A stretch of DNA of 64,000 bases, from contig JBQTIC010000003.1 in the NCBI GenBank assembly GCA_052388435.1, positions 1,565-65,564 of the forward strand, written 5' to 3'. Below the pieces are notes generated by a model. The model saw only the letters and a program-made list of their open reading frames with translations. It did no database searches and was not told where the DNA came from. Shown piece by piece: positions 3,336 through 32,365 of this stretch (the stretch's first letter is position 1; each line of letters starts with the position of its first letter). Origin of the DNA: Chromatiales bacterium (GTDB taxonomy: Bacteria; Pseudomonadota; Gammaproteobacteria; JAJPIJ01). Position numbers and translations under genes: made by a program.

Positions 3336-3850
3336 GCCGTCGTCTGGAAGGTCAGCGCCAGTGGCTCTGCTCCTAGAAGTTTAACATGTTCACCCGGCCC
3401 CAGTGACATGTGCACGCCGACAACGTTCGCTTCGATGGGCAGCTCGCGACCACCGCGGTCCACCAGCACCACTAGCGTCACGCTTGCCGGTCTGCCGTAG
3501 TCGAAGATCTCGTTCAGCGCCGCGCGCACAGTGCGTCCCGTGTAGAGGATGTCATCGACCAGCACGACGTGGCGGTCTTCCACATCGAAGGGCAGGTCCG
3601 ACGGTTCAACCGTCGGGTGCAGGCCCTTACGCGCAAAGTCATCGCGATGATACGCAATGTTGAGAGAGCCGACGGGATCGCTCAGATTCAAATGCTGGCG
3701 CAGCGCCTCCGCCACCCATACCCCGCCGGTGCGGATCCCTATCAGGGCGACCGATTGGCGCTCCGAGGCGGCGAGGCGCTCGATGAGCTGCTCAGCCATG
3801 GTATCGAGCACGGCAGGGATATCGGTGCCATCATTACGTGCGGTTTTCAT
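3332..3850 (-). CDS. pyrR: bifunctional pyrimidine operon regulator / uracil phosphoribosyltransferase PyrR
   Basis: 172 aa with a PRTase fold ([12 protein letters not shown]). It sits directly upstream of pyrB. Confidence 0.85.
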
Positions 3851-4244: not shown

Positions 4245-4347
4245 CCCGGCAGCCGTTCTTCAAAAAAGGATCCGAGGCTTCGAAGGTGCGGATGCGCCGC
4301 CGCGCACCGGGCGGCCATCGCCGCCTCGCGCTGAGGCACCGCCCCCA

Positions 4348-4899
4348 TCACGCGTGGCCCGCCTCGGGCGACATGGCATCGATGTTGATGCCCAGCAGCG
4401 CGGCGGCGCGACGCCAGCGATCCTGCGGCGGCACTTTGAAGAGGATCTGTTCATTGGCGGGGCTCGACAGCCACGCATTGTCGAGTATCTCCTGCTCCAG
4501 CTGACCTGCCGACCAGCCCGCATACCCCAGCGCCACCAGCGTGTCGCTCGGGCCTTCGCCACGCGAGATGGCTTCAAGGATATCCCGTGACGTCGCCACG
4601 CCGACCTCGCCCCCAACCTCCAGACTGGACCCCCACTGGGTATTCGGCCGGAAGAGAATAAAGCCACGATCCCGTTGCACCGGTCCGCCCTGGAATACCG
4701 GAATGTCATTGATGCGGGGATGCGTTGCCTGCATCTGCATCTGGCTCAACACCTCGCCAAGGCCGAAGCTCAGCGGACGGTTGATCACGATGCCCATTGC
4801 CCCCTCCTCGCTGTGCGCACACATATACGTGACCGTGTGCGAGAAATTGGGGTCCGCCAGGCTGGGCATGGCGATCAGGAAGTGGTTGGTGAGATTCAT
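4348..4899 (-). CDS. yqgE: YqgE/AlgH family protein (UPF0301)
   Basis: It aligns along its whole length to E. coli YqgE (MNLxxHFLIAMP...GYAGWSAGQLEQEILDNAWL). The start is chosen at MNLTNHFLIAMP. Confidence 0.8.
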   Translation of the reverse strand: MNLTNHFLIAMPSLADPNFSHTVTYMCAHSEEGAMGIVINRPLSFGLGEVLSQMQMQATHPRINDIPVFQGGPVQRDRGFILFRPNTQWGSSLEVGGEVGVATSRDILEAISRGEGPSDTLVALGYAGWSAGQLEQEILDNAWLSSPANEQILFKVPPQDRWRRAAALLGINIDAMSPEAGHA

Positions 4900-5137
4900 C
4901 GACCGCATAGAGATAAGTATCAGCACCCAACATTGAAGTTACAAGTCGACGGCGCGGTGGCTCCCGCCGAACAAGCTCATTGATGACAGCGACCAGCACG
5001 GTAAGGCCAGAATTGCGTCATCGCCGCTAGCATAGGAACAGGCCCCAGGCAGGCCTTTCGCGGTCACAAGTCTCCATCATCCATGACCGTGCTTGCAAAG
5101 CGGCACACGTCTAGCGCGGCGCAGAGTCAAGTAGCCG

Positions 5138-6199
5138 CTACTGGCTGGCGAAGCGCGCGCCGCTCTTGAATTGCCACGTACGGGTAATATGCAGGATGTC
5201 GACCTCCGTCGCGAAGGCCTCGGGAAAGGCAGCGTAAGGCGCAGCCAGCTCGACGATACGGATGGCGGCGTCATCAAGCACCGAGAACCCCGAGGGCCGG
5301 CGAACGGTAATTTCGCTGATGGAGCCGTCGGCATTGAGCGCGACGTCCAGTATGAGGCTCCCGGAGAGACGTTGCCGACGGGCCTCGTCCGGGTAATTGA
5401 GATTACCGATCCGCTCCACCTTCTGCCGCCACGCCTCCATGTAGGCGGCGTATTTGTATTCGGCGGTGGTCGCAGAGATGAACTTGCGCCGCGGGCGTTT
5501 CGCCTTGGCTTCCATGCGTTCGGCGATCTCCGCATCGAGACTCGCGATCTGAAAGGAGCGCGCGAGTAAGGCGGCACCGGACAGCGTTGGCGGGAGCGGC
5601 GGCGTCGTGGCCTCTCTCTCGGCTTTCGCCATCTCCGGCTCGCGATCTACGGCTGCCGCCGTTGATTCGCTGGTGGCGGCCTCTTCTTTCTTCACGTCGC
5701 GCGTGACCGGCGGTGTCTCGGCAATCGACTTCTCGGCCTCCGCCATGGATTGCGCGACGAGCTCCGGCGTGACGGTGGTCTCCTGCTCGACCTCCCGCGC
5801 GACCGTTGCGGGATCGGGCCGGGCAGTGTCGGGCGCAACTTCTGGCGGCGCCGGAGCAGGGAGATCAAAGGCAAGGGAAGGCGTGGGAGCCATCGGCACC
5901 GCGGACACGGCGGCCGGCACGGGGGTGGCCATTGGCGTCGCGGGACGCACGTCCTCCTCCTCCTCGCCGCCGCCAATCTGGTTGGCCTGCGCCAGAAGTT
6001 GCGCGTCCTTCGGCTTCTCCTCGCTGCGACTGTTCACCAGCACGATCTCGATTGTCTCGTAGCCCGGCAAGTCCGGCAGCGGCGGCACGAAACTTACGCC
6101 GAGGATGACGATGGCGTGAAGCAGGATGGCAAGGCACAGTGTCAACGCCAGCCGATCGCTCGGCGCGACGACTGCCGTGGCACTCAGTACTGCTGACAA
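5138..6199 (-). CDS. TonB family energy transducer: N-terminal TM anchor, Pro/Ala/Glu-rich spacer, C-terminal TonB domain
   Basis: The C-terminal domain (...LSGSLILDVALNADGSISEITVRRPSGFSVLDDAAIRIVE...) is TonB-like. Its position between gshB and yqgE matches the Pseudomonas PA0406 locus. Confidence 0.7.
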   Translation of the reverse strand: MSAVLSATAVVAPSDRLALTLCLAILLHAIVILGVSFVPPLPDLPGYETIEIVLVNSRSEEKPKDAQLLAQANQIGGGEEEEDVRPATPMATPVPAAVSAVPMAPTPSLAFDLPAPAPPEVAPDTARPDPATVAREVEQETTVTPELVAQSMAEAEKSIAETPPVTRDVKKEEAATSESTAAAVDREPEMAKAEREATTPPLPPTLSGAALLARSFQIASLDAEIAERMEAKAKRPRRKFISATTAEYKYAAYMEAWRQKVERIGNLNYPDEARRQRLSGSLILDVALNADGSISEITVRRPSGFSVLDDAAIRIVELAAPYAAFPEAFATEVDILHITRTWQFKSGARFASQ

Positions 6200-18080: not shown

Positions 18081-18530
18081 ATGAAGACGCGGCATAAACG
18101 GGCACTGCTCATCGCATCGGCGCTGGGGCTCATCGCGATCGCGGCGGCACTGGTGCTGACGGCATTCCGCAGCAACCTCGTCTTCTTTTTCACCCCGTCA
18201 CAGGTGGTGGCGAAGGAGGCACCTGTGGGCAAGCCGTTCCGGATCGGGGGGATCGTCGTCGAGGGAAGCCTGCAGCGATCCGACGACGGACTGACTGTTC
18301 ACTTTACCGTCACCGACACTGCCACTTCGGTGCCCGTCGTCTACACCGGCATCCTCCCCGATCTGTTCCGGGAGGGTAAGGGCGTGGTGGCGCAGGGGAG
18401 GTTGGGAACGGACGGCGTATTCCACGCCGCCGAGGTCCTGGCCAAGCACGACGAGAACTACATGCCGCCGGAGGCCGCGCTTGCCGTCGAGCAGGCACAT
18501 CAAGCGCAAAAGACGCTGCAGACGAACTGA
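18081..18530 (+). CDS. ccmE: cytochrome c-type biogenesis heme chaperone CcmE
   Basis: Aligns to E. coli CcmE (LRSNIDLFYTP..., [12 protein letters not shown]). Confidence 0.9.
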
Positions 18531-18540
18531 CGCTGCCCGC

Positions 18541-20520
18541 ATGGTTCCCGAGATCGGACAGTTTGCCCTAATCCTCGCGCTCATCCTGGCCGCAGCGCAG
18601 GCAACGCTGCCGCTCATCGGCGCGCATAAGGGGGTCGCGCGCTGGATGGACCTCGCCCGGCCGCTAGCGCATGGGCTAGCCGTGTTCGTGGCGCTCGCTT
18701 TCGGCTGCCTTGCCTGGTCGTTTATGCAGAACGATTTCTCTGTGCTCAACGTCGCCAGCAACTCCCATTCACGGCTGCCTGCGTATTACCGCTTCGCGGC
18801 TACCTGGGGCTCGCACGAGGGATCGCTGCTGCTGTGGGTGCTAATGCTCAGCGTCTGGATGGTAGCGGTGGCCCTCTTCAGCCGGGCGCTGCCGCGCGAG
18901 CTGCTCGCACGCGTACTTGGCGTGATGGGCTTGGTGAGCGTGGGCTTCCTGCTGTTCATGCTGCTGACTTCCAATCCCTTCGAGCGCCTGCTGCCCGCGG
19001 CGGCAGAGGGACGCGACCTCAATCCGCTGCTGCAGGATCCGGGCATGGTGGTCCACCCGCCGATGCTATACATGGGCTACGTGGGCCTCTCGGTCGCGTT
19101 CGCCTTTGCCATCGCCGCCCTGCTCGGCGGCAGGCTCGACACCACGTGGGCGCGGTGGTCACGGCCGTGGACAACGGCCGCGTGGTGTTTTCTCACCCTC
19201 GGCATCATGATTGGCAGCTGGTGGGCCTACTATGAACTCGGCTGGGGCGGCTGGTGGTTCTGGGACCCGGTGGAGAACGCCTCCTTCATGCCCTGGCTCG
19301 CCGCCACGGCGCTCGTGCATTCGCTCGCGGTGACCGAGAAACGCGGCAGCTTCAAGCGCTGGACACTGCTGCTGGCGATCTGCGCCTTCTCACTGTCGCT
19401 GCTCGGAACGTTCCTCGTGCGCTCCGGAGTGCTCACCTCGGTACATGCCTTCGCCACGGATCCCGCGCGCGGTATCTTCATCCTCGCCTTCCTCACCCTC
19501 GTTATCGGCGGGGCGCTCACGCTGTTCGCCTTGCGTGCGCCGCAGGTCGGCGGCGGCGGCCGCTTCGACATCGTCTCGCGCGAGTCGATGCTGCTCGCGA
19601 ACAACGTGCTGCTGCTCGTCGCGGCCGCCTCGGTGCTGCTCGGTACCCTGTACCCGCTCTTTATCGAGGTGCTGAGCGGCGGCAGCACCAAGATCTCGGT
19701 GGGCCCGCCGTATTTCGAAGCCGTGTTCGTGCCGATCATGACGCCGCTCGTGTTCCTGATGGGCGTCGGCCCGCTGGCGCGCTGGAAGGGAGAGTCGCTG
19801 CCGGGGCTGTGGACACTGCTGCGGTGGGCGCTCGCTGTCAGTGTGCTGACAGCGCTGGTGCTGCCGCTCGTCGCCGGCAAGGGATCGTCCTTTGTGAGCT
19901 TCGGTCTGCTGCTCGCCATCTGGATCACGGCGGCCACGCTCCTCAGCGCACGCGAGCGGATACGCAACGGCGCCGGCGCGTTGCTCGCGCGCCTCGGCAG
20001 CCAGCCCCGTGCCTGGTGGGGCATGACCTTCGCGCATCTGGGTGTGGCAGTGTTCATCGCAGGGGTCACACTGGTGCGCGGCTACGAGACTGAGCGCGAC
20101 GTGCGCATGGATGTCGGCGATACGTTGAGCGTCGCCGGTTACACGTTCCGTTTCGGCGGCACGCGCGAGGTCACCGGTTCCAACTACCGCGCCGAACGCG
20201 GCACCGTGACCGTCAGTCGTGACGGCCGGGAGATCGGCACAATGCATCCGGAGAAGCGCGTCTACACCGCGCAGCAGATGGCGTTAACCGAGGCTGCGAT
20301 CGACTCCGGCCTGCTTGGCGATCTCTACGTGTCGCTCGGCGAGCCGGTCGGCGACGGCGCCTGGAGCGTGCGCATCTACCACAAGCCTTTCGTCACCTGG
20401 ATCTGGTCTGGCTGTATCCTGATGGCGCTCGGCGGTGCCATCGCACTGGCGGACCGACGCTACCGCATACGCGTCGCGCGGGAACGCGAAGCCGGCGCGC
20501 TCCCCGCGCCGGCCGCTTGA
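18541..20520 (+). CDS. ccmF: cytochrome c-type biogenesis protein CcmF (heme lyase component)
   Basis: About 660 aa polytopic membrane protein with the WWD domain. The start is taken at MVPEIGQF, just after the ccmE stop. Confidence 0.9.
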   Translation: MVPEIGQFALILALILAAAQATLPLIGAHKGVARWMDLARPLAHGLAVFVALAFGCLAWSFMQNDFSVLNVASNSHSRLPAYYRFAATWGSHEGSLLLWVLMLSVWMVAVALFSRALPRELLARVLGVMGLVSVGFLLFMLLTSNPFERLLPAAAEGRDLNPLLQDPGMVVHPPMLYMGYVGLSVAFAFAIAALLGGRLDTTWARWSRPWTTAAWCFLTLGIMIGSWWAYYELGWGGWWFWDPVENASFMPWLAATALVHSLAVTEKRGSFKRWTLLLAICAFSLSLLGTFLVRSGVLTSVHAFATDPARGIFILAFLTLVIGGALTLFALRAPQVGGGGRFDIVSRESMLLANNVLLLVAAASVLLGTLYPLFIEVLSGGSTKISVGPPYFEAVFVPIMTPLVFLMGVGPLARWKGESLPGLWTLLRWALAVSVLTALVLPLVAGKGSSFVSFGLLLAIWITAATLLSARERIRNGAGALLARLGSQPRAWWGMTFAHLGVAVFIAGVTLVRGYETERDVRMDVGDTLSVAGYTFRFGGTREVTGSNYRAERGTVTVSRDGREIGTMHPEKRVYTAQQMALTEAAIDSGLLGDLYVSLGEPVGDGAWSVRIYHKPFVTWIWSGCILMALGGAIALADRRYRIRVAREREAGALPAPAA

Positions 20521-20538
20521 AGCCCGCGGCAGGACATC

Positions 20539-21063
20539 ATGAACCGTTTCCTGCTGCCCGGCGTGTTCGTGGTCCTGGTGGCCTTTCTGTTCATCGGCCT
20601 CCAACTCAATCCGCGCCAAGTGCCCTCCCCGCTCATCGGCAAGGCCGCTCCCGCGTTCCAGCTCGCGCAACTGTATGCGCCGGAGCGCTCCTTCTCGCCA
20701 CGCGATATGCTCGGGGAGGTCTGGCTGCTCAACGTGTGGGCGTCGTGGTGCGTTTCCTGCCGCGACGAACACCCGCTGCTCGTCGAGTTCGCGCGGGCAA
20801 ACACGGTGGCACTCGTCGGCCTGAACTACAAGGACGAGCCGGAGGACGCGCAGGCGTGGCTGGCGCGCTTCGGCGATCCCTACCGCCTCTCGCTCACCGA
20901 CCTTGATGGGCGGGTGGGGATCGACTTCGGCGTCTACGGTGTGCCGGAGACTTTCGTGATCGACAAGGCCGGCGTGATCCGCTACAAGCACGTCGGGCCG
21001 CTCACGGCAGCGGCCTTGGCGGAGACGATCCTGCCGTTGGTGCGGGAGCTGCAAAAGGGATGA
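20539..21063 (+). CDS. ccmG: thiol:disulfide interchange protein CcmG/DsbE
   Basis: Thioredoxin fold with a WCxxC active site (WASWCVSCRDEHP). Confidence 0.9.
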   Translation: MNRFLLPGVFVVLVAFLFIGLQLNPRQVPSPLIGKAAPAFQLAQLYAPERSFSPRDMLGEVWLLNVWASWCVSCRDEHPLLVEFARANTVALVGLNYKDEPEDAQAWLARFGDPYRLSLTDLDGRVGIDFGVYGVPETFVIDKAGVIRYKHVGPLTAAALAETILPLVRELQKG

Positions 21064-21539
21064 CGCGCGTCGCCGTGCTGCTGCTGCTGCTGCTGATGAT
21101 GCCATCCATGGGATCGACAAGGGATGCCGTGCCGACGTCCGAGGACCCGCTCGCGGCGGCGCGTGCCGTGCGGATCGAGAAGAAGCTGCGCTGTCTGGTC
21201 TGCCAGAATCAGTCTATCGCCGAGTCCAATGCCGACTTGGCCGTGGATCTGCGTCGCGAGATCCACACCCAGATCGCGGCCGGCAGGAGCGATGGGGAGA
21301 TCATCGCTTTCATGGTCCAGCGCTACGGCGACTTCATCCTGTACCGGCCACCGTTCAAGCCGGCGACTGTGCTGCTCTGGCTGGGACCGGCACTGCTGTT
21401 CGCACTCGGCGTGTGGGTACTCCGGCGTGCGCTGCGCGCGCAGTCGCGGGCGACGGCAACCTCCCCGCTGTCGGCAGAGGAGCATGCTCTCGCCGAGCGT
21501 CTGCTCGCCGATGAGACTAACCGGGAGGGAAAATGGTGA
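21060..21539 (+). CDS. ccmH: cytochrome c-type biogenesis protein CcmH
   Basis: LRCxxCQNQ motif and the SNADLAVDLRREI...RYGDFILYRPP signature. Confidence 0.85.
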   Translation: MTRVAVLLLLLLMMPSMGSTRDAVPTSEDPLAAARAVRIEKKLRCLVCQNQSIAESNADLAVDLRREIHTQIAAGRSDGEIIAFMVQRYGDFILYRPPFKPATVLLWLGPALLFALGVWVLRRALRAQSRATATSPLSAEEHALAERLLADETNREGKW

Positions 21540-22747
21540 GTTTCATGCTGGTCGCAGCGGCGATGGTCGCCGCGACCGTCGCCGTGGTGGCGGTGCCGCT
21601 GCTGCGCTCACGCAGCGATGCCGCTGTCGATCGCACGCGCTCCAATCTCGCCCTCCTGCGGGATCAGCTGGCGGATCTCGACGCGGACCTCGCGCGCGGT
21701 GTGCTCTCCCCGGAACACTACCGCGACGCCAGGGAGGATCTGGAACGCCGCGTGCTCGATGAAGCGAACCGCGACACCGGAACGAGCACTATCGCGGCGC
21801 GTGGCTCACTGTGGATGGCGGCCATCCTTGCCGCGCTCATCCCCGCGGTCGCGGTGCTGTTGTATGTCGGCGTCGGCAACCCCGGCGCGCTGGTGGCAAA
21901 GGTGCAAGCACCGGCCGGCGGCGCACGAGAGGTCAGCACGGAGCAGTTGGAGCAACTGGTCAGCGAACTCGCGGCCCGTCTGGAGCGCAAGCCCGATGAC
22001 GTCGAGGGCTGGGAGATCCTGGCGAGGTCCTACCGCGCCATGCGCCGATTCGATGATGCTGCAAAGGCCTACGAGCGCGCAGTGCGTCTAGCGCCCAGCG
22101 ACCCCAACCTGCTCGCCGGTTACGCCGATGTGCTCGCCATGCGGCAGGAGGGTCGACTGTCCGGCAGACCGATCGAACTCATCGAGCGCGCGCTCGCCAT
22201 CGATCCGGATCACTTGAAGACGCTGGCGCTGGCTGGGCGTGAGGCCTTCGACCGTCAGGATTACACCGCCGCCATCGGCTACTGGGAGCAGCTCAGGACG
22301 AGGACGCCACCTGACTCCTCGGTCGTGCCAGCAATCGAAGCCGGCATTGCCGCGGCGCGCGCAAGGATCGGAAACGCCGGCAACGTGACGACACCGGCGG
22401 CGCCCGCCCGGGTGTCGGGAGTGATCACGTTGAGCCCCGACCTGACTGCCAGAGCTGCGCCCGGAGACACCGTATACGTCTTTGCACGCGCCGTCGGAGG
22501 GCCACCGCTGCCGCTCGCTGTCCTGCGCAAGCAGGTGAAGGACTTGCCGCTCCTCTTCACGCTCAATGACACCATGGCGATGACGCCGGACATGAAGCTC
22601 TCGCGCTTCGCGGAAGTCGTCGTCGGGGCGCGCGTATCCAAATCGGGCGCGGCTACTCCTCAGAGCGGCGATCTGCAGGGCATCTCCACGCCCGTGAAGG
22701 TCGGTGCATCCGATGTCGCCGTAGTCGTCAATCGCGTGCTGCCCTGA
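21533..22747 (+). CDS. ccmI: cytochrome c-type biogenesis protein CcmI/CycH (TPR repeats)
   Basis: N-terminal TM segments followed by a TPR-like region. It is the last gene of the ccm operon. Confidence 0.7.
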   Translation: MVSFMLVAAAMVAATVAVVAVPLLRSRSDAAVDRTRSNLALLRDQLADLDADLARGVLSPEHYRDAREDLERRVLDEANRDTGTSTIAARGSLWMAAILAALIPAVAVLLYVGVGNPGALVAKVQAPAGGAREVSTEQLEQLVSELAARLERKPDDVEGWEILARSYRAMRRFDDAAKAYERAVRLAPSDPNLLAGYADVLAMRQEGRLSGRPIELIERALAIDPDHLKTLALAGREAFDRQDYTAAIGYWEQLRTRTPPDSSVVPAIEAGIAAARARIGNAGNVTTPAAPARVSGVITLSPDLTARAAPGDTVYVFARAVGGPPLPLAVLRKQVKDLPLLFTLNDTMAMTPDMKLSRFAEVVVGARVSKSGAATPQSGDLQGISTPVKVGASDVAVVVNRVLP

Positions 22748-22785
22748 GTACTGCGCGCGGACATGCGGCCTGCGCCGCTGGCGCC

Positions 22786-23232
22786 TTAGCGAACCTCAAG
22801 CTTCCCGATCATTCCCTTATCGCGATGGCTCGGGAGGAAGGCGAGCTTCTTGTCGCAATAGAAGTCGAACATGCCGGCCTTGGTCGGCGTGAACTGGACC
22901 GTGGCCATTTCGCCCGGCTTGACCTTTTTCGTCACATACAGACCTGCTGCGGCGCTGTCGAGCTTGAAGCTGTGAGGCGCCAGGCTGGCGATGTTCTTCA
23001 GCGTGAGTTCCACCGGCTTGCCCGATTGCACCACGATGTGTGCAGGCGTAAAGGTGTAGCTCTCCAGCGTCACCAACAGCCGCTGCACACCATCCGCCCC
23101 CGTTTCCGCCGTGACAGCCGCGCCGCCAGCGGGCTGCGACTCTTGCGCGCGCGCGCTGGCCATGCTGAAAAACAGTAGTGCAAGCAGGATTCGAGCTCCG
23201 GCCTTGGAGAGTACGTCACGCTGGTACTGCAT
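22786..23232 (-). CDS. secreted cupredoxin-like (type 1 copper) protein
   Basis: Signal peptide (ARILLALLFFSMASARAQE). Candidate Cu ligands are His (PHSF), Cys (FYCDKK), His (PSHRD) and Met (KGMIG) in the C-terminal beta-sandwich region. It is the last gene on the same strand as the PKS operon. Confidence 0.5.
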   Translation of the reverse strand: MQYQRDVLSKAGARILLALLFFSMASARAQESQPAGGAAVTAETGADGVQRLLVTLESYTFTPAHIVVQSGKPVELTLKNIASLAPHSFKLDSAAAGLYVTKKVKPGEMATVQFTPTKAGMFDFYCDKKLAFLPSHRDKGMIGKLEVR

Positions 23233-23274
23233 GGTCACCTCCGCACAAAAGGGTGTCACGTACGTTCTTACATT

Positions 23275-24504
23275 CTAGAGCACCGCCGGCACAGTGGTTG
23301 TCTTGCCACTGGCACGTGCGCACCAGTTCAGTAACGGCGGTTGGCGCACGAGCAGCGCGGCCGACAGGCGAGCCAACGTCGGCCGCATGGCCAGTTGCGC
23401 ATAGAGTTCAGCTTGGCGCAGGCGCGGCAGGAACTGTCGCCGCCACAGGCATGTGTATTGGTGGGCGATCCGCGCGACATTGATGCGTCCTGCCTGATCG
23501 CGGGCTGCGATCAGCAGTTGCGCCAGCGTCCACGCCCCCTGCATCGCCATGCTGATCCCCTCGGCGATTATCGGATGCGCCTCACCGGCGCAATTGCCAA
23601 CTGTGAGCACGCCGTGCCGGCAGAGCCCGCGTGCACCCGGCCGGATCGGTCCCACCGACAGCCATTCGCCGCTTCGGTGAGCGCCGTCGAGCGTGTGCCG
23701 CGCCCCCCGGCAGTGCTCGAGGATGTGCGCCAGCACCGCCTCGCCGGCGCGCTGCGGGACGCCCGCGCGCCGATCCTGCAGCGTATCGCGCCGAATGCAA
23801 CAGGACAGGCTCACCTGTCCGCCGCTGCTGTGAACCAGACCGCCGTAACCCCCGGGAAAGGCAAGCAGCAGCATGGTATCCGCCGGCAGGTCACAGTCGC
23901 GAAAATGGGCCTTGAAGGCGAGGAGATCCCCCCGGGTGGCTTCAGCACGCGGCGGATTCGTCGACACCCCGCCCTGCTCCCAGGAACCATTGGCAGCAAT
24001 GACCACTCGCGCGCGCAAGCGGTAGCGTGCCTGGCGGGGTGAGACCGCCTCGCAGAGGAAGGCGTCATTCTCGCCGACGACGGCCAGAGCACGGCAGGGT
24101 TGGATGATTTCCGCCCCTGCACGACGCGCTCCATCGAGCAGCATGGTGTCCAGCCACTCCCGGGCCAACGCACGCCCCCACACTGCGCCGGGCCCGGCCG
24201 CCACAGGGGCGACTGTCACCGCTTCGTAGGCCTGTATGCCGATCCGCCGCACGGGCGGGCCGGCCAGATCGAGAAAGGCGTTCTCATGACCCAGCGCGCG
24301 CAGCAACGGCAGAGTCGCCGCCGAGACGAATTCGCCGCACACCTTGCGGCGCGGGAACAACGCCTTCTCCAGCACGAGCACTGACCAGCCGGACCGAGCC
24401 AGCAGCGTGGCCAGCGTGGCCCCCGCCGGCCCGCCACCGATGAGGAGAGCGTCAGCGTCCGCGTGCATGATGGCCACCACTGCGTCGTTGCGCCAGGAAG
24501 ACAT
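23275..24504 (-). CDS. FAD-dependent oxidoreductase / flavoprotein monooxygenase (SrsC-like)
   Basis: N-terminal Rossmann fold (LLIGGGPAGATLATLLARSGWSVLVLEK) with a PRRKVCGE motif. It is third in a type III PKS / methyltransferase / flavoprotein operon. Confidence 0.7.
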   Translation of the reverse strand: MSSWRNDAVVAIMHADADALLIGGGPAGATLATLLARSGWSVLVLEKALFPRRKVCGEFVSAATLPLLRALGHENAFLDLAGPPVRRIGIQAYEAVTVAPVAAGPGAVWGRALAREWLDTMLLDGARRAGAEIIQPCRALAVVGENDAFLCEAVSPRQARYRLRARVVIAANGSWEQGGVSTNPPRAEATRGDLLAFKAHFRDCDLPADTMLLLAFPGGYGGLVHSSGGQVSLSCCIRRDTLQDRRAGVPQRAGEAVLAHILEHCRGARHTLDGAHRSGEWLSVGPIRPGARGLCRHGVLTVGNCAGEAHPIIAEGISMAMQGAWTLAQLLIAARDQAGRINVARIAHQYTCLWRRQFLPRLRQAELYAQLAMRPTLARLSAALLVRQPPLLNWCARASGKTTTVPAVL

Positions 24505-25183
24505 GACTGAACAGGCCCGCAGGCCATTCGCTTACAATCCACCCCCCGCCGGCTGGCCAGAGTTGCGAAAGCTCGCTGCCAGCGAATCCTGCGCGGACGC
24601 TTGCGACGGCATCGTGACGAGTGACGCTGTTACAGCCGAGCAGGAAGAGCAGGTGACTCGACGCCAGGGCAAAGCGCGTTCGCCGCGGTTCGCACGCAAG
24701 GAAAGTCGTCGCCCGATCAGCCACGTGCTGAAACATGTCCGCCAGCCGGTGGTCCTCGAAGTGATGGAGGAATAGATTCGCCATCACCAGATCGACCTCC
24801 TCCTGGGCGGCACGCGCCAGCCATTCAAAGACATCTGCCACCGTCACTTCGGTTTGCCAGCCGAGTGCCTGTAGAGTTTCCAGCGTTCGTGTGTCGACAA
24901 CGCAAGATCGATCCACCAGTGTCAGGTGCACGCCCTGCCAGAGATTGTGCCAGCGCCGCGCGACGCGAAGTATCATGGCCCCGTCGCCGGCACCAAGGTC
25001 GACGATGCGCCGCGGCGACAGCGACGGCTGCAGGCGTCCCAGCGCCCGCGAGAGGATCGCCGCGTTCCCCATGAGCGCATTCACCCTGCGCAGGTCGCGC
25101 CGCGCGGAACGCGCTTGCGCTGCCTCCGGTGCCAGGCTGTCCAGAATTTCCGGCTCGATGTGGCGCGTCAGAGGCACAGGCAT
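24452..25183 (-). CDS. class I SAM-dependent methyltransferase (SrsB-like)
   Basis: SAM-binding motif I (VDLGAGDG). It is tightly linked to the upstream PKS gene, with a 13-nt gap, and overlaps the downstream flavoprotein gene. Confidence 0.7.
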   Translation of the reverse strand: MPVPLTRHIEPEILDSLAPEAAQARSARRDLRRVNALMGNAAILSRALGRLQPSLSPRRIVDLGAGDGAMILRVARRWHNLWQGVHLTLVDRSCVVDTRTLETLQALGWQTEVTVADVFEWLARAAQEEVDLVMANLFLHHFEDHRLADMFQHVADRATTFLACEPRRTRFALASSHLLFLLGCNSVTRHDAVASVRAGFAGSELSQLWPAGGGWIVSEWPAGLFSHVFLAQRRSGGHHARGR

Positions 25184-25198
25184 CGACCACGAGACGCT

Positions 25199-26278
25199 TC
25201 AGGCATCGACCCGCAGCAGCGCACCGTGGCTGGCGAACCCCGCGCCGAATGATGACATCCACCACCAGCCACCCGGGGCGCCGCCCTGCAGGGCATGCTG
25301 CAGCACGAAGAGCACGCTGGCGCTGCTTACGTTACCATACTCGCTCAAGACCTCGCGGCTCCAACGCGTCGCCTCGTCGTCCAGCCGCAATCGCTCGGCG
25401 AGCGCGCGCAGTACGTCGCGCCCGCCGGCGTGCCAAAGCCAGGTGCTCACCGAACGACGGTCCAGCTCGCGCTCGGCGAGCACACCCTGGAGCACGATCT
25501 CGGCGTATTCGGCGGCCAGTTGCGGCACCGGCGGGGTGAGTACATTGCGCAGCATTCCGCGGCGGTGCTCAAATCGCAGCAGTTCGCGACGCGCGGGGTC
25601 AACCTGCGAGCCGTAACCCGTCCACTCGATCCGGCGACGTGCAGGCTGCGGCGCCGAACTCAGCACCACGGCCGCCGCACCGTCACCGAACAGACACGCG
25701 CTGATGAGCACGCCCGGATCGTTGTCGAGGAAAAAGGCCGCGCTGCATATCTCCACACAGATCGACAGCACGCGTTCACATTGTCTGCTGTGCAATAAAG
25801 CGGCGGCGGTAGACATATTGGGCAACGCGGCGCTACACCCGTGCCCGACCAGATCCAGAGCGCAGACATCGGTGCGTAAACCCAGGTGCTCGATCGCGTA
25901 AGACGACAGGCCCGGGCACAGATATCCGGTACACGTGCTAACGATAACCGCATCGATTTCAGACACCGCCACAGCCGCATCATTGAGCGCGTTCCTCGCC
26001 GCGCGTGCTGCCAGCGCTGGAGCGTGGCGCTGGAATCGCCGGTGCATGGCGTCCGGGGTCATGTCATCGACCTGGGCAAGTGTCTCCAGCGCGAGGTGCC
26101 GCGTGCGGATCCCGTTGTCGCCGTTCAGGACCTTGCGCAAGATCGCCTGGGAGCGCGGACTGAGCGACGCGTGCACCGGTGTTGCCGCGAGCGCCTGCCA
26201 GCACTCGGCCTGCGTGTAGCGGCGCGAGGGCGTTGCGATGCCCAGCCCGTTTACAAACATCGAGTTCCCGTGCGCCAA
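25199..26278 (-). CDS. type III polyketide synthase (chalcone/stilbene synthase family; alkylresorcinol-type, SrsA-like)
   Basis: Thiolase fold with a candidate Cys (VSTCTGYLCPGL), His (WHAGGRDVL) and Asn (EYGNVSSASVLFVL) catalytic triad. Confidence 0.8.
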   Translation of the reverse strand: MAHGNSMFVNGLGIATPSRRYTQAECWQALAATPVHASLSPRSQAILRKVLNGDNGIRTRHLALETLAQVDDMTPDAMHRRFQRHAPALAARAARNALNDAAVAVSEIDAVIVSTCTGYLCPGLSSYAIEHLGLRTDVCALDLVGHGCSAALPNMSTAAALLHSRQCERVLSICVEICSAAFFLDNDPGVLISACLFGDGAAAVVLSSAPQPARRRIEWTGYGSQVDPARRELLRFEHRRGMLRNVLTPPVPQLAAEYAEIVLQGVLAERELDRRSVSTWLWHAGGRDVLRALAERLRLDDEATRWSREVLSEYGNVSSASVLFVLQHALQGGAPGGWWWMSSFGAGFASHGALLRVDA

Positions 26279-26579
26279 CCTGCAGCACGGGAGCTAGCGA
26301 GCTGCCAACTGGCGAAATGCAGCGGGCGGAATTCGCATATGAACAACGACCGTGCGGCAATGGTGAGGCAAAAACAATTCGACCGGACTTGGTGGCATTG
26401 GTTCAGGGTGCGTAACACGGGGACGGGACGGCCGCCGACTCGCGAATGCATGTCTAAGCCTAGAATGCCGTCGCGCAGGTTCAGCACCTACATCCATTAA
26501 GAATGGTTGTACTGTACTTCGGCGGCGGGCACCCCGCGTAAGCTGACAGACACAGCCCACGGCAGCGCCAGTTCGTGAG

Positions 26580-27422
26580 CTATTCGTTGGTAGCGATGGC
26601 CTTCTGGATGTCGCGCTGACGCTGGCGCTCCTGCCTGCTCATCACCACTCCGGCGACGAACACGGCCAGCGTCACTGCGGCGATGAGTATCGTCGCCAGC
26701 GCGTTGATCTCCGGGCTGACGCCGAGACGCACCTTGGAAAAGATGACCATCGGCAGCGTGGTTGAGCCTGGTCCGGAGGTGAAGCTCGCGATCACCAGAT
26801 CGTCCAGCGACAACGTGAATGCCAGCAGCCATCCGGCAATAAGCGCCGGAGCGATGATCGGAAGGGTGATGACGAAGAACACCTTGGCCGGCTCGGCGCC
26901 GAGATCCATCGCCGCTTCCTCGAGGGAGGTGTCCATCTGACTCAAACGCGACTGCACGATCACTGCGACATAGGCCATTGAAAAGGTGGTATGCGCAATG
27001 GTGATGGTGGTGACGCCACGGCCCTGCGGCCAGCCGATCCATTGCTCCAACGACACGAACAACAGCAGCAGTGACAAACCCGTGATCACCTCCGGCATGA
27101 CCAGCGGCGCCGTCGCCATCCCGGAGAACAACGCGCGTCCGCGGAACTTGCCGAAGCGGGTCAGCACCAGCGCCACCATCGTCCCGAGGATAACTGCCAA
27201 CGTCGCGTTCATGATCGCGATCTTCACGCTCAGCCATGCCGCGTCGAGGATCTGTGTGTTGGCGAGGAGCGAAGCATACCACTTGGTCGAGAACCCGCCC
27301 CACACCGTCACCAGCTTCGACTTGTTGAACGAGAAGACGATGAGCGAGAAGATCGGTACATAGAGGAAGGCAAACCCGAAGATAACGCAGCCCAGAAGAA
27401 ATATGGACCGACGTTGGTTCAT
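26580..27422 (-). CDS. polyamine ABC transporter permease (PotI/SpuH-like)
   Basis: PotC/PotI-family six-TM permease with an EAA-like loop. Confidence 0.85.
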   Translation of the reverse strand: MNQRRSIFLLGCVIFGFAFLYVPIFSLIVFSFNKSKLVTVWGGFSTKWYASLLANTQILDAAWLSVKIAIMNATLAVILGTMVALVLTRFGKFRGRALFSGMATAPLVMPEVITGLSLLLLFVSLEQWIGWPQGRGVTTITIAHTTFSMAYVAVIVQSRLSQMDTSLEEAAMDLGAEPAKVFFVITLPIIAPALIAGWLLAFTLSLDDLVIASFTSGPGSTTLPMVIFSKVRLGVSPEINALATILIAAVTLAVFVAGVVMSRQERQRQRDIQKAIATNE

Positions 27423-28423
27423 CGCGCCGCCGCCGCGTCTTTTGCCTGGAAGTGCTGGAAGATCATGATCGGCACCACCAGCAGCAACAGGATCGCGATC
27501 GCCACGGCGGAGGCCACCGGCCAGGCGCGATTGGCGAAGAATTCATCCCACAGCACCTTGCCGATCATCAGTGTGTTCGGTCCGCCCAGCAGCTCCGGGA
27601 TCACGAACTCACCGACTGCAGGAATGAACACCAGCATACAGCCGGCGATGATGCCCGGCAAAGACAGCGGCAGGGTGATCGTCAGGAAGGACTTGAACGG
27701 TCGGCAACCAAGGTCGTAGGCCGCCTCGAGCAGGGTCAGGTCCATCTTCTCCAGGGTCGCGTACAGCGGCATGACCATGAACGGCAGATAGGAGTAGACG
27801 ATGCCGACGTAGACCGCGAATGGCGTGTGCATCATCACGATCGGTTCATCGATGATGCCGAGTCCCATGAGCAGCTGATTGATGACGCCGTTGTTCTTGA
27901 GGATGCCGATCCACGCATACACGCGCAGCAGGAAGGAGGTCCAGAACGGCAGGAACACCAGCATCAGCAGCACATTGCGCCACGCCGGATGGGTGCGTGC
28001 GATGCCGTAGGCCATCGGGTAGCCGATCACCAGACACAGCAGCGTTGAGATAGCGGCGATCTTGACGGAGTTAAGGTAGGCCTTCCAATACAAGTCGTCG
28101 TTCACCAGGAACAGAATGTTCGAGACGTTGAGTTTCAGCGTCAGATACTTGCCCTCGGCCCAATCGACAAGCGGCGTGTAGGGCGGCTGCGCGAGCACCT
28201 GGTCGGCAAAGGCGATCTTCAGCACGATGGCGAACGGCACCAGAAAGAACAGCAGCAGCCAGATGTATGGCACCGCAGTGACGAGAGAGCGGCCCGAGAA
28301 GCCGAAACGTCCGATCTGTTCCAGCAGCCAGGGCAGCGGCGGGATGCGGACCAGTGTACGCGCCAGCGGCTCGAGCATTCGCGCGAGCTGCCGCCCCAGC
28401 GTGACGTAGCCGACGCGGGTCAT
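27419..28423 (-). CDS. polyamine ABC transporter permease (PotH/SpuG-like)
   Basis: PotB/PotH-family permease. It overlaps the neighbouring genes by 4 nt on each side. Confidence 0.85.
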   Translation of the reverse strand: MTRVGYVTLGRQLARMLEPLARTLVRIPPLPWLLEQIGRFGFSGRSLVTAVPYIWLLLFFLVPFAIVLKIAFADQVLAQPPYTPLVDWAEGKYLTLKLNVSNILFLVNDDLYWKAYLNSVKIAAISTLLCLVIGYPMAYGIARTHPAWRNVLLMLVFLPFWTSFLLRVYAWIGILKNNGVINQLLMGLGIIDEPIVMMHTPFAVYVGIVYSYLPFMVMPLYATLEKMDLTLLEAAYDLGCRPFKSFLTITLPLSLPGIIAGCMLVFIPAVGEFVIPELLGGPNTLMIGKVLWDEFFANRAWPVASAVAIAILLLLVVPIMIFQHFQAKDAAAAR

Positions 28424-29565
28424 GAGATCAAAACTATACCGCTGGCCGGATGCCAGTGCAGATATACCCGGTCATCCCAGGTGATGCGATCCTCGGCGTG
28501 ACGGATGAGATTCGGCTGCGTGACCTTGACCATCTTGCCGCTGTCGAGACGGACGTTGAACACGGAGATATCACCCATGTAGGCGATGTCCTGCACGAGT
28601 CCCCGTGTGCAGTTCTCGCGCGCATCGGCCGGCGCTTCACGGGTAACGTGGATCTTCTCCGGCCGGATGGCCACCCAGAGCGTTGCGTTGGGTGGCGCCG
28701 CCACCCCGTGGTTGATGAAAATCGTGCAGCCGGATTCCTCCGATCCGATGCGCACGAAGTCATTGTCCTCATCGACGATGCGGCCCTCGAACATGTTCAC
28801 GGAGCCGATGAAATCCGCGACGAAGCGGCTGATCGGGAACTCGTAGATCTCCGTGGGCGTACCGACCTGCACGATCTGCCCCTGGTTCATGACGCCGATG
28901 CGGGAGGCCAGCGTCATGGCCTCCTCCTGATCGTGCGTTACCACCATAAAAGTGACGCCGGTGCGCTCCTGGATATTCACCAGCTCGAATTGCGTCTGCT
29001 CGCGCAGTTTCTTGTCGAGCGCGCCGAGCGGCTCATCGAGCAGCAGCAACTTCGGCTGCTTGACCAGCGCACGCGCCAGCGCCACGCGCTGGCGCTGGCC
29101 GCCGGAGAGCTGGTGCGGCTTGCGTTTCGCGAAAGCACCGAGTTGCACCAGCGCCAGCATGTCACCGACCCGCCTGGCGATCTCGGCGCGCGGGAGGTGA
29201 TCCTGCTTGAGGCCAAAGGCGACGTTGTCCTCCACGCTCATGTGCGGGAACAGCGCGTAGGACTGGAACATCATATTGACCGGCCGGTGGTAGGGGGGAA
29301 TGTCGGCCATGTTGATGCCGTCAATGTAAAGCGCACCTGCGGTGAGCGGTTCGAAGCCGGCGAGCAGGCGCAGCAGGGTACTCTTGCCGCAGCCGGATCC
29401 ACCCAGCAGACAGAACAACTCGTTTTTGTAGACGTTGAGGGAAACGTTGTTGACGGCAACGAAATCGCCGAATTTCTTGGTGACGTTGTCGATGCGGATG
29501 TAGGGTTCCGCCTTGGGATCCGTCCAGGGCGGAACCTGTTTCTCGTTGCGTCGCGTCTCGTTCAT
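28420..29565 (-). CDS. putrescine ABC transporter ATP-binding protein (PotG/SpuF-like)
   Basis: Walker A GGSGCGKST, LSGGQRQRVALARAL and a C-terminal TOBE domain. Aligns to PotG. Confidence 0.9.
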   Translation of the reverse strand: MNETRRNEKQVPPWTDPKAEPYIRIDNVTKKFGDFVAVNNVSLNVYKNELFCLLGGSGCGKSTLLRLLAGFEPLTAGALYIDGINMADIPPYHRPVNMMFQSYALFPHMSVEDNVAFGLKQDHLPRAEIARRVGDMLALVQLGAFAKRKPHQLSGGQRQRVALARALVKQPKLLLLDEPLGALDKKLREQTQFELVNIQERTGVTFMVVTHDQEEAMTLASRIGVMNQGQIVQVGTPTEIYEFPISRFVADFIGSVNMFEGRIVDEDNDFVRIGSEESGCTIFINHGVAAPPNATLWVAIRPEKIHVTREAPADARENCTRGLVQDIAYMGDISVFNVRLDSGKMVKVTQPNLIRHAEDRITWDDRVYLHWHPASGIVLIS

Positions 29566-29641
29566 GCACTTTCACCCCGTTCACGCTGTTGGAGCGGCCC
29601 TGGCCGCGAACAGCGACGCGTTCGCGGGCTGGCGCCCGCTC

Positions 29642-30805
29642 CTACTGGCCCGTCTTGATCCTGGTCCACGAACGGGTGAGCAGGCGATCGTACTCGGCGG
29701 TGTGCACCGGGTTGGGGAAGAGCTTGGCCTTGACCTCCGGCGGCGGAAAGATCCCCGGGTCGTTCTTCACCTCATCGTTGATGAACTCCAGGGACGCCGC
29801 ATTGGCATTGGCATAGTTGACGTAGTTGCTGACGGCGGCGGTGATCTCCGGCCGCAGGAAGTAATCGAGGAACAGGTGCGCGTTCTTCGGATGCGGCGCA
29901 TCGACGGTGATCGCCAGCAGATCGAACCACACCTCAGCGCCTTCCTTGGGTATGAAATAGGCAAGCTCGATACCCTGGCCCGCCTCCTCGGCGCGGTCGC
30001 GGGCGATGAACACATCGCCGCTCCAGCCGACCACCAGACAGACTTCGCCGTTGGCGAGGTCATTAATGTATTGGGACGAATGGAAGTACTTGATGTGCGG
30101 CCGCGCCTGCATCAGCAACGCCTCGGCCGCCTCCAGATCCTTCGGGTCCTCGCTGTCCGGCTCCTTGCCGAGATAGCGCAATGCCGTCGCCATGATCTCG
30201 GTCGGCGCATCGAGCATGGTCACGCCACAGTCGGCAAACTTCGACAGCAGCTCGGGCTTGAAGATGAGCTCCCACGAATCCAGCGTTGCCTCGGGCATGC
30301 GCTCCTTGACCTTGGCGACGTTGTAGCCGATGCCGGTCGTTCCCCACATCCACGGAAAGGAATAGAGGTTGTCCGGATCGTACTTCGCCAGCGTCTGCAT
30401 GATCTCCGGATCGAGATTCTTGTAATTGGGGATCTGTGCCCGGTCGAGCTTCTGGAACACGCCAGCCTGTGCCTGTCTGGCGAGGAAGTTCGCGCCTGGG
30501 ACCACGATGTCATAGCCGGTCTTGCCGGCGAGCAGCTTGGCTTCGAGCACCTCGTTCGAGTCGAAGACGTCGTAGCGGACCTTGATGCCGGTCTCCTTCT
30601 CAAAATTGGGAACGGTGTCCTCGGCGATATAGTCCGACCAGTTGTAGATGTTGAGGATCTTTTCATCATCGCCACCTGCAACTGCGCCGGCGGTGGTTGT
30701 ATCTTTGGACACTGCGGGCGGGGCTTCTGCATTACCCTGTTTTTTCCCGCATCCGCCAAGAACCAAGACAAGTAGAACGAGGCTGAGCTTCTTCGTGTTC
30801 GGCAT
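29642..30805 (-). CDS. putrescine-binding periplasmic protein (PotF/SpuD-like)
   Basis: Aligns over its full length to E. coli PotF (YNWSDYIA.DTV.NFEKETGIKV.YDVFDSNEVLE...). The start is taken at MPNTKKLSLVLLVLVLGGCG, a lipoprotein-like signal. Confidence 0.85.
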   Translation of the reverse strand: MPNTKKLSLVLLVLVLGGCGKKQGNAEAPPAVSKDTTTAGAVAGGDDEKILNIYNWSDYIAEDTVPNFEKETGIKVRYDVFDSNEVLEAKLLAGKTGYDIVVPGANFLARQAQAGVFQKLDRAQIPNYKNLDPEIMQTLAKYDPDNLYSFPWMWGTTGIGYNVAKVKERMPEATLDSWELIFKPELLSKFADCGVTMLDAPTEIMATALRYLGKEPDSEDPKDLEAAEALLMQARPHIKYFHSSQYINDLANGEVCLVVGWSGDVFIARDRAEEAGQGIELAYFIPKEGAEVWFDLLAITVDAPHPKNAHLFLDYFLRPEITAAVSNYVNYANANAASLEFINDEVKNDPGIFPPPEVKAKLFPNPVHTAEYDRLLTRSWTRIKTGQ

Positions 30806-30976
30806 AACGTCATCTCCTGATGGGTGCAAATATCGATTAAGGCATCCCTGACGGAGCGTCCTGTACAAAACACAACCACCACTGCGTGCAGGCATGAGCC
30901 GGAGCGTGGCCTCACACCGATTCTCTCTCTGTCCTCCTTGGCATGTAAAGCTCGTTGTACTGTGACAACGCGCTGA

Positions 30977-32365
30977 TCAGTTAGTCTGCGCGGCAATTCC
31001 CAGGCGTGCGGCAGTCATGTCCAGGCTCTTCTTCGCTAGCAGCCACATCTCGTCGATGTCGGCTCGTGTCGAAATGAGCGGCGGCGCCAGTATCATCGTA
31101 TCGCGCACGGCGCGCATCACCAGGCCGTTGTCAAAGCAGAAATCGCGGCACAGGGTACCGACGTCGCCGATGGGCTCGAAGAAACGGCGAGCGGCCTTGT
31201 CCTGCACCAGCTCAATCGCGGCGAGCAGCCCGACACCCCGGACCTCCCCCACCAGCGGGTGATCGCTGAACTCCTGCCAGCGCTGCTGCAGATAGGGGCC
31301 GGTCGCGCGCTCGACGCGCTCTATGATGCCTTCGTTCCGCAATACCCGTATATTCGCACATCCGACCGCACAGGCCGCCGGGTGGCCGGAGTACGTGAAG
31401 CCGTGGTAGAACTCGCCGCCGCCCTCGATGATCGGTCTGGCGACACGGTCGCTCACCAGCACGCCGCCCAGCGGCAGGTAACCGCCGCTCACCCCCTTGG
31501 CAAACGGCATCAGGTCCGGCTCGATGCCGAAGTAGTCACTGCCGAACCACTTGCCCGTCCTGCCGAATGCGCAGATGACTTCGTCGGCGATGAGCAGGAC
31601 GCCGTGCTTCTTGCAGATGCGGTTCACTTCCGGCCAATAGGTGTCAGGGGGAATGATCATGCCGCCAGCGCCCTGGACAGGTTCGCCGATGAAGGCGGCG
31701 ACGTTTTCCGCGCCGAGCTCCAGGATCTTCTGCTCCAGCCAGCCGGCGGCCTGGCGCCCGAACTCCGGGGGTGAGAGACTCCCGCCGCTCCCGTACCAGT
31801 ACGGCGCGCCAATGTGCACTATACCGGGGATGGGCAGGTGCCCCTGTTCGTGCACCGGCTTCTGCCCGCCGAGGCTCGCCGCCGCGATAGTCGAGCCGTG
31901 AAAGGCGTTTTCACGCGAGATGATGATGCGTCGGGCAGGTTTGCCGACTACGTCCCAGTAGCGGCGCACCAGCCGGATCACGGTATCGTTGGCCTCGGAG
32001 CCCGAACCGGTGAAGAACACGTGGTTGAAACCCGGCGGCGCGACTTCCGCCAGCAGGCGCGCGAGTTCTATTGCCGGCGGATGGGCGGTCTTGAAGAAGC
32101 TGTTGTAGTAGGGCAGCTCGCGGAGCTGCTCGCAGGCTGCGTCGATGAGCTCGGCGCGCCCGTAGCCGAGATTGCAACACCAAAGGCCCGACATGCCATC
32201 GAGCAGGCGCCGATTATCGGAGTCCCAGAGGTAAATGCCTTCGGCGCGGGTGATGACGCGCGTACCCTCCTCGCGCAACGCCCTGGAGTCCGTGAAGGGA
32301 TGCAGGTAGTGGCGCCGGTCGATCTCCTGCCACTCCGCCGTGCTGTGCTTCGGTATCGCGTTCAT
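30977..32365 (-). CDS. class III aminotransferase, putrescine--pyruvate transaminase type (SpuC-like)
   Basis: 462 aa PLP fold-type I omega-aminotransferase with GSGSEANDT and LIADEV...FGRTG motifs. Its position between the GS-like gene and potF matches spuC. Confidence 0.8.
   Translation of the reverse strand: MNAIPKHSTAEWQEIDRRHYLHPFTDSRALREEGTRVITRAEGIYLWDSDNRRLLDGMSGLWCCNLGYGRAELIDAACEQLRELPYYNSFFKTAHPPAIELARLLAEVAPPGFNHVFFTGSGSEANDTVIRLVRRYWDVVGKPARRIIISRENAFHGSTIAAASLGGQKPVHEQGHLPIPGIVHIGAPYWYGSGGSLSPPEFGRQAAGWLEQKILELGAENVAAFIGEPVQGAGGMIIPPDTYWPEVNRICKKHGVLLIADEVICAFGRTGKWFGSDYFGIEPDLMPFAKGVSGGYLPLGGVLVSDRVARPIIEGGGEFYHGFTYSGHPAACAVGCANIRVLRNEGIIERVERATGPYLQQRWQEFSDHPLVGEVRGVGLLAAIELVQDKAARRFFEPIGDVGTLCRDFCFDNGLVMRAVRDTMILAPPLISTRADIDEMWLLAKKSLDMTAARLGIAAQTN

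Follow-up and report, generated by a model that had tools for sequence, protein, structure and literature searches.

The window analysed here is a stretch of 64,000 nucleotides from a Chromatiales bacterium (assembly GCA_052388435.1, contig JBQTIC010000003.1), and its minus strand carries four tightly packed open reading frames (ORFs) of one direction, which span 22786-26278 in the ORF map. In the order of transcription, they code for a type III polyketide synthase (PKS), a class I S-adenosylmethionine (SAM)-dependent methyltransferase, an FAD-dependent oxidoreductase of the geranylgeranyl-reductase-like group and an exported single-domain cupredoxin. Each of the four ORFs scored above the Pfam gathering threshold for the family that an initial annotation, made from the letters alone, had named; the identities of PKS, methyltransferase, flavoprotein and secreted cupredoxin were thus borne out. 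Judged by gene arrangement, the four genes form one operon. The first three belong to a bacterial cassette that is known and very common, of which they are an ordinary example, and the cupredoxin gene is an extension of this cassette that recurs in related genomes.

The PKS gene (25199-26260, minus strand) codes for 353 amino acids from ATG 26260, with an alternative TTG start at 26278; with the ATG start the product is identical to the deposited protein MGQ0656569.1 (P0001, 'MAG: Chromatiales bacterium'). Fifteen nucleotides lie between its stop and the start of the methyltransferase gene (24452-25183, minus strand, 243 amino acids). The flavoprotein gene (23275-24504, minus strand) begins within the methyltransferase gene; its product has 409 amino acids from ATG 24504, with an overlap of 53 nt, or 397 from ATG 24468, with an overlap of 17 nt. 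The latter is probably the true start, since the alignments of the orthologues begin near residue 15-18. The flavoprotein stop codon (TAG 23277-23275) is followed by a junction of 42 nt (23233-23274) with a GGAGG ribosome-binding site at 23242-23238, and five bases past this site stands ATG 23232 of the cupredoxin gene (22786-23232, minus strand, 148 amino acids). The deposited annotation takes GTG 23259 instead, and the window cupredoxin is identical to this 157-amino-acid form (MGQ0656566.1, P0121 in the homology database); an exact-sequence look-up retrieved neither this form nor the one of 148 amino acids. A terminator scan revealed no terminator-like site at any junction of the operon, and the GC content of the operon resembles that of its surroundings. 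Ahead of the PKS start, 319 nt of non-coding DNA (26261-26579) extend to the stop of a potI-like permease gene (26580), and this interval presumably holds the promoter and regulatory region of the operon. A promoter scan found no minus-strand match to the sigma-70 consensus in 26261-26579, and Rfam had zero matches within 22000-27000.

The PKS matched the Pfam families Chal_sti_synt_N (54.4 bits), Chal_sti_synt_C (50.6 bits) and FAE1_CUT1_RppA (65.6 bits). Among the NCBIfam models, all of which stayed below their cut-offs, DpgA reached 164 bits. The best 60 solved-structure matches listed were type III PKSs without exception, headed by Pks11 of Mycobacterium tuberculosis (105.8 bits) and including Steely1, THNS and CHS; no FabH was among these 60. 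A candidate Cys-His-Asn triad had been read from the sequence earlier, and it held in the alignment: Cys142 (codon 25837-25835), His277 (25432-25430) and Asn310 (25333-25331), in the numbering of the 353-residue form, are invariant across 21 homologues. They align with the catalytic residues of Pks11, including the site altered in the Cys-to-Ser entry 4jat. Some of the homologues carry the source-given name 'alkylresorcinol/alkylpyrone synthase', and such names are the one pointer to a cyclisation to alkylresorcinols and not to pyrones.

For the methyltransferase, Methyltransf_25 was the best Pfam match (33.6 bits), accompanied by Methyltransf_23, _12, _31 and _11, and a weak match to the NCBIfam model PRK06202 was obtained; no ICMT or PEMT family of Pfam matched at E<=0.01. 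By these matches the enzyme is a class I, Rossmann-type methyltransferase. The flavoprotein matched FAD_binding_3 of Pfam with 60.9 bits and the NCBIfam models GG-red-SF (85.7 bits) and QhpG (66.6 bits), both under the cut-off. It resembles the geranylgeranyl-reductase-like group, which includes the ring-hydroxylating QhpG and LodB, and is presumed to be a ring hydroxylase. Matches in the Protein Data Bank (PDB) were weak and comprised flavin halogenases and a digeranylgeranylglycerophospholipid reductase. A halogenase identity was considered because the flavin halogenases were the best of these matches, but they covered mainly the FAD-binding N-terminus and the WxWxIP motif was absent on reading, and this identity was rejected.

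The cupredoxin matched Cupredoxin_1 (PF13473) with 51.7 bits, above the gathering threshold. Four putative type 1 copper ligands, His87 (codon 22974-22972), Cys126 (22857-22855), His136 (22827-22825) and Met141 (22812-22810), are invariant in an alignment of 27 homologues and are kept in both types of PKS-linked cupredoxin described below. A Sec signal peptide (23146-23232, minus strand, residues ~1-27/29), with an A-S-A/R-A cleavage motif and no conserved lipobox, can be read in the N-terminal sequence MQYQRDVLSKAGARILLALLFFSMASA/RA. It is followed by a low-complexity linker and a domain of ~100 residues, and similar N-termini occur in every PKS-linked homologue. An AlphaFold2 model built with the 27 homologues had a mean pLDDT of 85.7, with the domain above 90, a helix at residues 8-26 and a low-confidence linker to about residue 45; the domain has the beta-sandwich fold of cupredoxins. 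Signal peptide and model together suggest a protein exported via Sec. The family profile matches copper nitrite reductases in their type 1 copper domains, where the Cys, the second His and the Met align. The ligand loop reads Cys-x9-His-x4-Met in every member. Compared with 6tfd and 2dv6, two nitrite reductases whose N-terminal cupredoxin domain aligns with the window protein, the stretch from Cys to His has five additional residues. The order His-Cys-His-Met typical of type 1 copper proteins is thus present and their short Cys-x(2-4)-His-x(2-4)-Met loop is not. From the alignment, the ligands of the protein are taken to be those of a blue copper protein of electron transfer, set within an atypical loop. 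The other Cupredoxin_1 proteins compared were 4hcf of Bacillus anthracis, CupA, nitrosocyanin, the N-terminal domain of FtrB/EfeO and the type 1 domains of copper nitrite reductases; the His/Cys/His/Met positions of the window protein align with the nitrite-reductase type 1 sites. The window protein differs from these aligned sites by its Cys-His loop of 9 residues, longer by about five, and its ligand set is unlike those of CupA and nitrosocyanin. A linkage to polyketide genes, as the window cupredoxin has it, exists for none of them. The subfamily is rare, with 953 clusters found among 5.8 billion searched.

The distribution of the cassette was followed in a scan by PKS alignment, which took one genome per species, was unbiased with regard to the cupredoxin and returned 80 loci with 56-65 % identity. 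These loci (numbered with L in the following, as are loci from other searches) come from metagenome-assembled genomes (MAGs) labelled mainly as Gammaproteobacteria, Burkholderiales, Nitrospirota and Verrucomicrobiota. In 76 of the 80, a methyltransferase orthologue directly follows the PKS gene; in the four exceptions the locus ends just past the PKS (L035, L082), the gene lies ~2.6 kb off (L050) or there is none (L046). Of the 81 clustered loci, 66 had a flavoprotein of the same family. It stands after the methyltransferase gene with 45-57 % identity to the window protein in Proteobacteria and Nitrospirota, and has ~26 % identity in Verrucomicrobiota. Neighbour clustering of the cupredoxin-less loci gave no universal partner as a conserved fourth gene. 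Their neighbours were housekeeping genes (ThiE-, phosphofructokinase- and enolase-like by reading), ORFs without Pfam match and lineage-specific additions, either an acyl carrier protein with a ketosynthase or a second monooxygenase with UbiD.

Several of these additions were observed in detail. In L088 (6001-10708, plasmid pSBC2-3 of Caballeronia sp. SBC2), L089 (plasmid 1 of Burkholderia sp. PAMC 28687) and L079 (4235-8747), the trio is followed by genes for an acyl carrier protein and a beta-ketoacyl synthase, which in these Burkholderiaceae loci probably supply the acyl starter. Both named strains are cultured, which makes them suitable hosts for experiments on the trio, and they carry it, without cupredoxin, on large plasmids. 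A tblastn search with methyltransferase and flavoprotein against plasmids returned only four proteobacterial records (Caballeronia, Burkholderia, Mesorhizobium), and the matches of the PKS to Streptomyces plasmids were mostly DpgA. In L071 (11073-15685, a Burkholderiales MAG), four same-strand genes follow the trio, coding for two ORFs without Pfam match, a second FAD_binding_3 monooxygenase and a UbiD-like decarboxylase. This set suggests a ubiquinone-style tailoring of the polyketide ring and fits a quinone-like end product within the cassette family. A ThiE-like gene (thiamine-phosphate synthase, by reading) directly follows the divergent flavoprotein (~26 % identity to the window) in 14 Verrucomicrobiota-type loci (L022, L027, L028, L030, L044, L048, L054, L058, L061, L064, L066, L069, L070 and L085), probably as a conserved local gene order and not as a part of the pathway. 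Five 'binchicken' MAG records (L027, L032, L034, L039, L047) are titled Bifidobacteriaceae, Streptomycetaceae, Streptomyces or Enterobacteriaceae; in the neighbour-joining tree their PKSs group with loci labelled as Verrucomicrobiota or Proteobacteria, and the taxonomic labels of these records look unreliable.

A family profile of the cupredoxin detected it in only six loci of the PKS scan, in two different positions. It lies 3' of the flavoprotein gene in L008 and L016, and 5' of the PKS gene on the same strand in L011, L012, L014 and L017, a Burkholderiales clade in which the proteins have 35-36 % identity to the window cupredoxin and keep the four ligands. In a search from the cupredoxin side, every one of the closest homologues (60-72 % identity) stood next after an orthologue of the flavoprotein (L001, L002, L090, L091, L170-L173). 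The downstream arrangement is therefore present in the window and on ten further contigs of its gammaproteobacterial clade, counting L008 and L016. The flavoprotein-cupredoxin junction measures 33-40 nt in L001, L171 and L172, compared with the 42 nt of the window, and is a conserved unit. The genes beyond vary: L001 has SelR and a GGDEF protein, L170 a Gly-zipper/peptidoglycan-binding protein, L171 an HI0933-like flavoprotein and L172 small ORFs, and in the window the convergent ccmI follows. Synteny of the cupredoxin in relatives, on which the proposal of a four-gene operon had been made to depend, was thus observed. In the PKS tree, the window clusters with L016, L008 and the truncated L009 and L010. 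L001 has the downstream cupredoxin and its nearest neighbours L025 and L039 do not, and the four upstream-type loci form a tight, distant clade with neighbours that also lack the gene. In the cupredoxin tree the upstream-type copies form a deep, separate branch. All carriers of a cupredoxin-bearing cassette are uncultured.

Most members of the cupredoxin subfamily come from Nitrospirota, where a different gene context prevails. There, the cupredoxin gene lies directly 5' of a gene of the squalene/phytoene-synthase family (SQS_PSY) in 64 of 80 metagenome loci (L090-L169) and also in L003-L006 and L174; in most loci the two genes are a few to ~20 nt apart. This is the second association of the subfamily with a gene of membrane-lipid synthesis. 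The SQS_PSY copy of Nitrospira japonica (LT828648; L006, 8001-9484) reached 83 bits on the squalene synthase model, under the cut-off. The pair is divergent to genes for an M48 protease and an AhpC/glutathione peroxidase, and on its other side stand a small ferredoxin-like gene and three ORFs of ~116-138 amino acids without family match. A third context group has neither a PKS nor an SQS_PSY link; in its member L095, an ORF of 1033 amino acids without Pfam match (2756-5854) lies directly 5' of the cupredoxin gene, on which a Cache-HAMP-SpoIIE phosphatase gene converges.

Among the characterised systems, the srsABC operon of Streptomyces griseus has the same gene order as the trio of the window, PKS, methyltransferase, flavoprotein, and its pathway leads from an alkylresorcinol via a methyl ether to an alkylquinone (PMC9927152, PMC10896814). 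The initial annotation had likened the trio to srsABC in its architecture. The match holds for gene order and fails for the second enzyme: the srsB homologue of an actinobacterial srs-like cluster is annotated as ICMT-family (PMC6669644), whereas the window enzyme is of class I. Since SrsB is an ICMT-family protein, the trio is no strict member of the srsABC type; furthermore, srsABC has no fourth gene where the window has a cupredoxin. Compared by enzyme class, the window cassette is closest to the hidABC operon of hierridin synthesis in Cyanobium and to planctomycetal operons, which unite the same three enzyme classes in a three-gene operon (PMC6836626, PMC10896814). The order PKS, methyltransferase, oxidoreductase (hidC>hidA>hidB) also occurs in cyanobacteria (PMC8086630). 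Such operons yield methylated long-chain alkylresorcinols, which in the case of HidB are hydroxylated too (PMC6836626, PMC8086630, PMC10896814), and cyanobacterial and planctomycetal cassette members of this hid-like type share 48-55 % identity. No cupredoxin or other metalloprotein has been reported for these clusters, and their hosts differ from those of the window cassette, which are Proteobacteria, Nitrospirota and Verrucomicrobiota. The pkqABC operon of Mycobacterium smegmatis and Streptomyces sp. MNU77 is likewise a three-gene type III PKS operon; its alkyl-benzoquinone provides the membrane with an alternative electron carrier when oxygen is limiting or the cells are dormant (PMC9927152). 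This offers a precedent for a respiratory interpretation, but pkqABC is actinobacterial and encodes no dedicated electron acceptor protein. The nearest parallel with a small electron-transfer partner is a cyanobacterial type III PKS lineage that is consistently linked to cytochrome b5 genes (PMC8086630), with a haem instead of a copper partner and in a different clade. Electron transfer from menaquinol to auracyanin via Alternative Complex III and the oxidations at laccase type 1 (T1) copper sites need a quinol-oxidising complex or a trinuclear copper cluster, and neither is encoded in the window operon. That a cupredoxin stands outside the described srs paradigm was confirmed for the literature searched, in which no described type III PKS operon includes one; the papers that came up in a search for a cupredoxin together with a bacterial type III PKS cluster all dealt with plants and fungi and had no bearing on it. 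With respect to this literature, the recurrent extension by a cupredoxin is new.

We propose that the operon combines a pathway for a quinol-type lipid with a periplasmic cupredoxin that acts as one-electron partner of this lipid, an analogy-based reading that we consider about equally apt to be right or wrong. The steps of the lipid pathway are modelled on the characterised srs, pkq and hid systems. An alkylresorcinol or alkylresorcylic acid would arise when the PKS condenses malonyl-CoA with a long-chain acyl starter. Methylation of the ring by the methyltransferase and hydroxylation by the flavoprotein would then turn it into an alkyl-methoxy-hydroquinone/benzoquinone lipid, located in the inner membrane. 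On the outer side of this membrane, the type 1 copper centre may serve as one-electron partner of the phenolic or quinol head group. Laccase T1 copper sites oxidise hydroquinones, and quinol oxidation by type 1 copper is thermodynamically reasonable. The cupredoxin could oxidise the quinol as the laccase T1 site does with methoxy-hydroquinones, and could pass the electron to a periplasmic or membrane acceptor. Precedents exist for alkylquinone products and for the role as electron carrier (PMC9927152, PMC10896814).

Several observations weigh against this proposal. The operon encodes no acceptor, which a type 1 copper protein on its own needs in order to turn over. In planctomycetes, co-expression of the methyltransferase led to C-methylation, and what the flavoprotein does was left unsettled (PMC10896814); in view of this result the hydroxyquinol/quinone end product is an assumption. 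The 9-residue Cys-His spacing exceeds that of classical blue copper proteins, which leaves the spectroscopic type uncertain. Among the closest structural neighbours of the cupredoxin are CupA, a copper chaperone, and FtrB, a protein of iron uptake, and thus a role in metal handling is possible. Furthermore, 13 of the 18 proteobacterial and nitrospirotal trios with complete flanks are without cupredoxin (5 of 18 carry it), as are all Verrucomicrobiota-type loci, and both the PKS and the cupredoxin trees are neighbour-joining trees without support values. The cupredoxin does not extend the trio in general. Because most trios lack it, it appears dispensable for the pathway, and its frequent absence marks it as an optional, lineage-specific accessory and not a core biosynthetic enzyme.

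The main rival explanation is that the cupredoxin is a copper-handling protein of the CopI/CupA type or an envelope-stress protein, co-regulated with a phenolic lipid, so that both guard against copper or oxidative stress and no electron passes between lipid and protein. We consider this unlikely, yet it has some footing: a weak match to CopI (31.7 bits) was obtained, the Nitrospirota members of the subfamily are divergent to the genes for M48 protease and AhpC/glutathione peroxidase, a methionine-sulfoxide reductase gene (SelR) comes next after the cupredoxin in L001, and alkylresorcinols are known antioxidants. The CopI score, however, is far under the cut-off of 280 and covers residues 28-104 only, and the cupredoxin has no His/Met-rich copper-binding tract. 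Its domain contains one conserved Cys only, so the Cys...Cys-x-Met-x-Met site for Cu(I) in CupA is absent, and the invariant residues are the His-Cys-His-Met set of the electron-transfer type. No cop or cus genes were present beside any PKS-linked copy in the loci examined. Less likely than this rival, and improbable in our judgement, is a linkage without meaning, in which the cupredoxin landed as a passenger beside the cassette and was inherited vertically in two shallow clades. The many trios without it, including L025 and L039 as closest relatives of L001, the different dominant context of the subfamily beside SQS_PSY in Nitrospirota and the origin of every PKS-linked example from an uncultured metagenome assembly would all agree with a passenger. 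Against it stand the two insertion points in two PKS clades with cupredoxin lineages that are only ~35 % identical, and a junction held at 33-42 nt in the window, L001, L171 and L172 though the genes beyond vary. In so rare a subfamily, repeated chance adjacency to one cassette is unlikely, and together the two positions, two clades, two divergent lineages and the rarity argue for a functional linkage.

Two further explanations, which concern the two ends of the operon, are effectively excluded. A FabH-type KAS III in place of the PKS would start fatty-acid synthesis, and the cluster would then hold no polyketide pathway; the initial annotation had made its proposal conditional on the PKS not grouping with such enzymes. 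The Pfam domains ACP_syn_III and ACP_syn_III_C do match the PKS (~42 bits each), NCBI labels the plasmid orthologues 'ACP synthase III C-terminal domain-containing protein', and the Cys-His-Asn triad is common to FabH too and by itself does not discriminate. Nevertheless, the chalcone/stilbene synthase and FAE1_CUT1_RppA domains outscore ACP_syn_III, and the FabH models reached 95.3 and 82.8 bits against cut-offs of 249 and 292, compared with 164 bits for DpgA. Since these domains, the DpgA score and the listed PDB matches all favour a type III PKS, the sequence comparison identifies the enzyme as such and not as FabH. At the other end of the operon lies ccmEFGHI (18081-22747, plus strand; this and the other flanking genes were identified by reading of the translations alone), which converges on the operon and ends 38 nt from the cupredoxin stop. 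The physical adjacency had been taken as support for a respiratory or periplasmic redox role, and operon and ccm genes could accordingly be regarded as one redox module. We consider this very improbable, because the convergent orientation precludes co-transcription and because tblastn with CcmE/F/G/H/I, as with PotF/H/I, found no orthologue in 167 related loci. The adjacency is specific to this genome and gives no information on function.

Cassettes of type III PKS, methyltransferase and flavoprotein are very widespread, but what they do in the cell has been established for few organisms; among the roles proposed are antibiotic tolerance, cyst lipids and, in actinobacteria, alternative respiratory quinones. 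A dedicated, exported type 1 copper protein, which joins the cassette in two clades and at two positions, hints for the first time on the level of genomes that the cassette lipids have a protein partner on the periplasmic side, and the pairing of cupredoxin and lipid gives a testable handle on polyketide quinols as electron carriers outside the actinobacteria. The pairing with SQS_PSY widens the question to a possible general link of a copper-protein family with specialised membrane lipids. Taken further, the operon might represent a minimal, self-contained electron-transfer branch of Gram-negative bacteria, in which an alkyl-methoxy-quinol directly reduces a dedicated periplasmic blue copper protein without a bc1 or Alternative Complex III-type oxidase, and the cupredoxin feeds periplasmic acceptors. 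More broadly, the Cys-x9-His-x4-Met subfamily would then consist of periplasmic copper proteins acting on or with specialised membrane lipids, polyketide quinols in Proteobacteria and the product of a squalene-synthase-like enzyme in Nitrospirota. This extended view is speculative and we consider it rather doubtful.

On the 5' side of the operon, the minus strand of the window carries genes of a potF/G/H/I-like ABC transporter and a class III aminotransferase-like ORF (26580-32365). For this transporter, only distant PotG-like ABC ATPase matches with 28-35 % identity were obtained in the 167 related loci.

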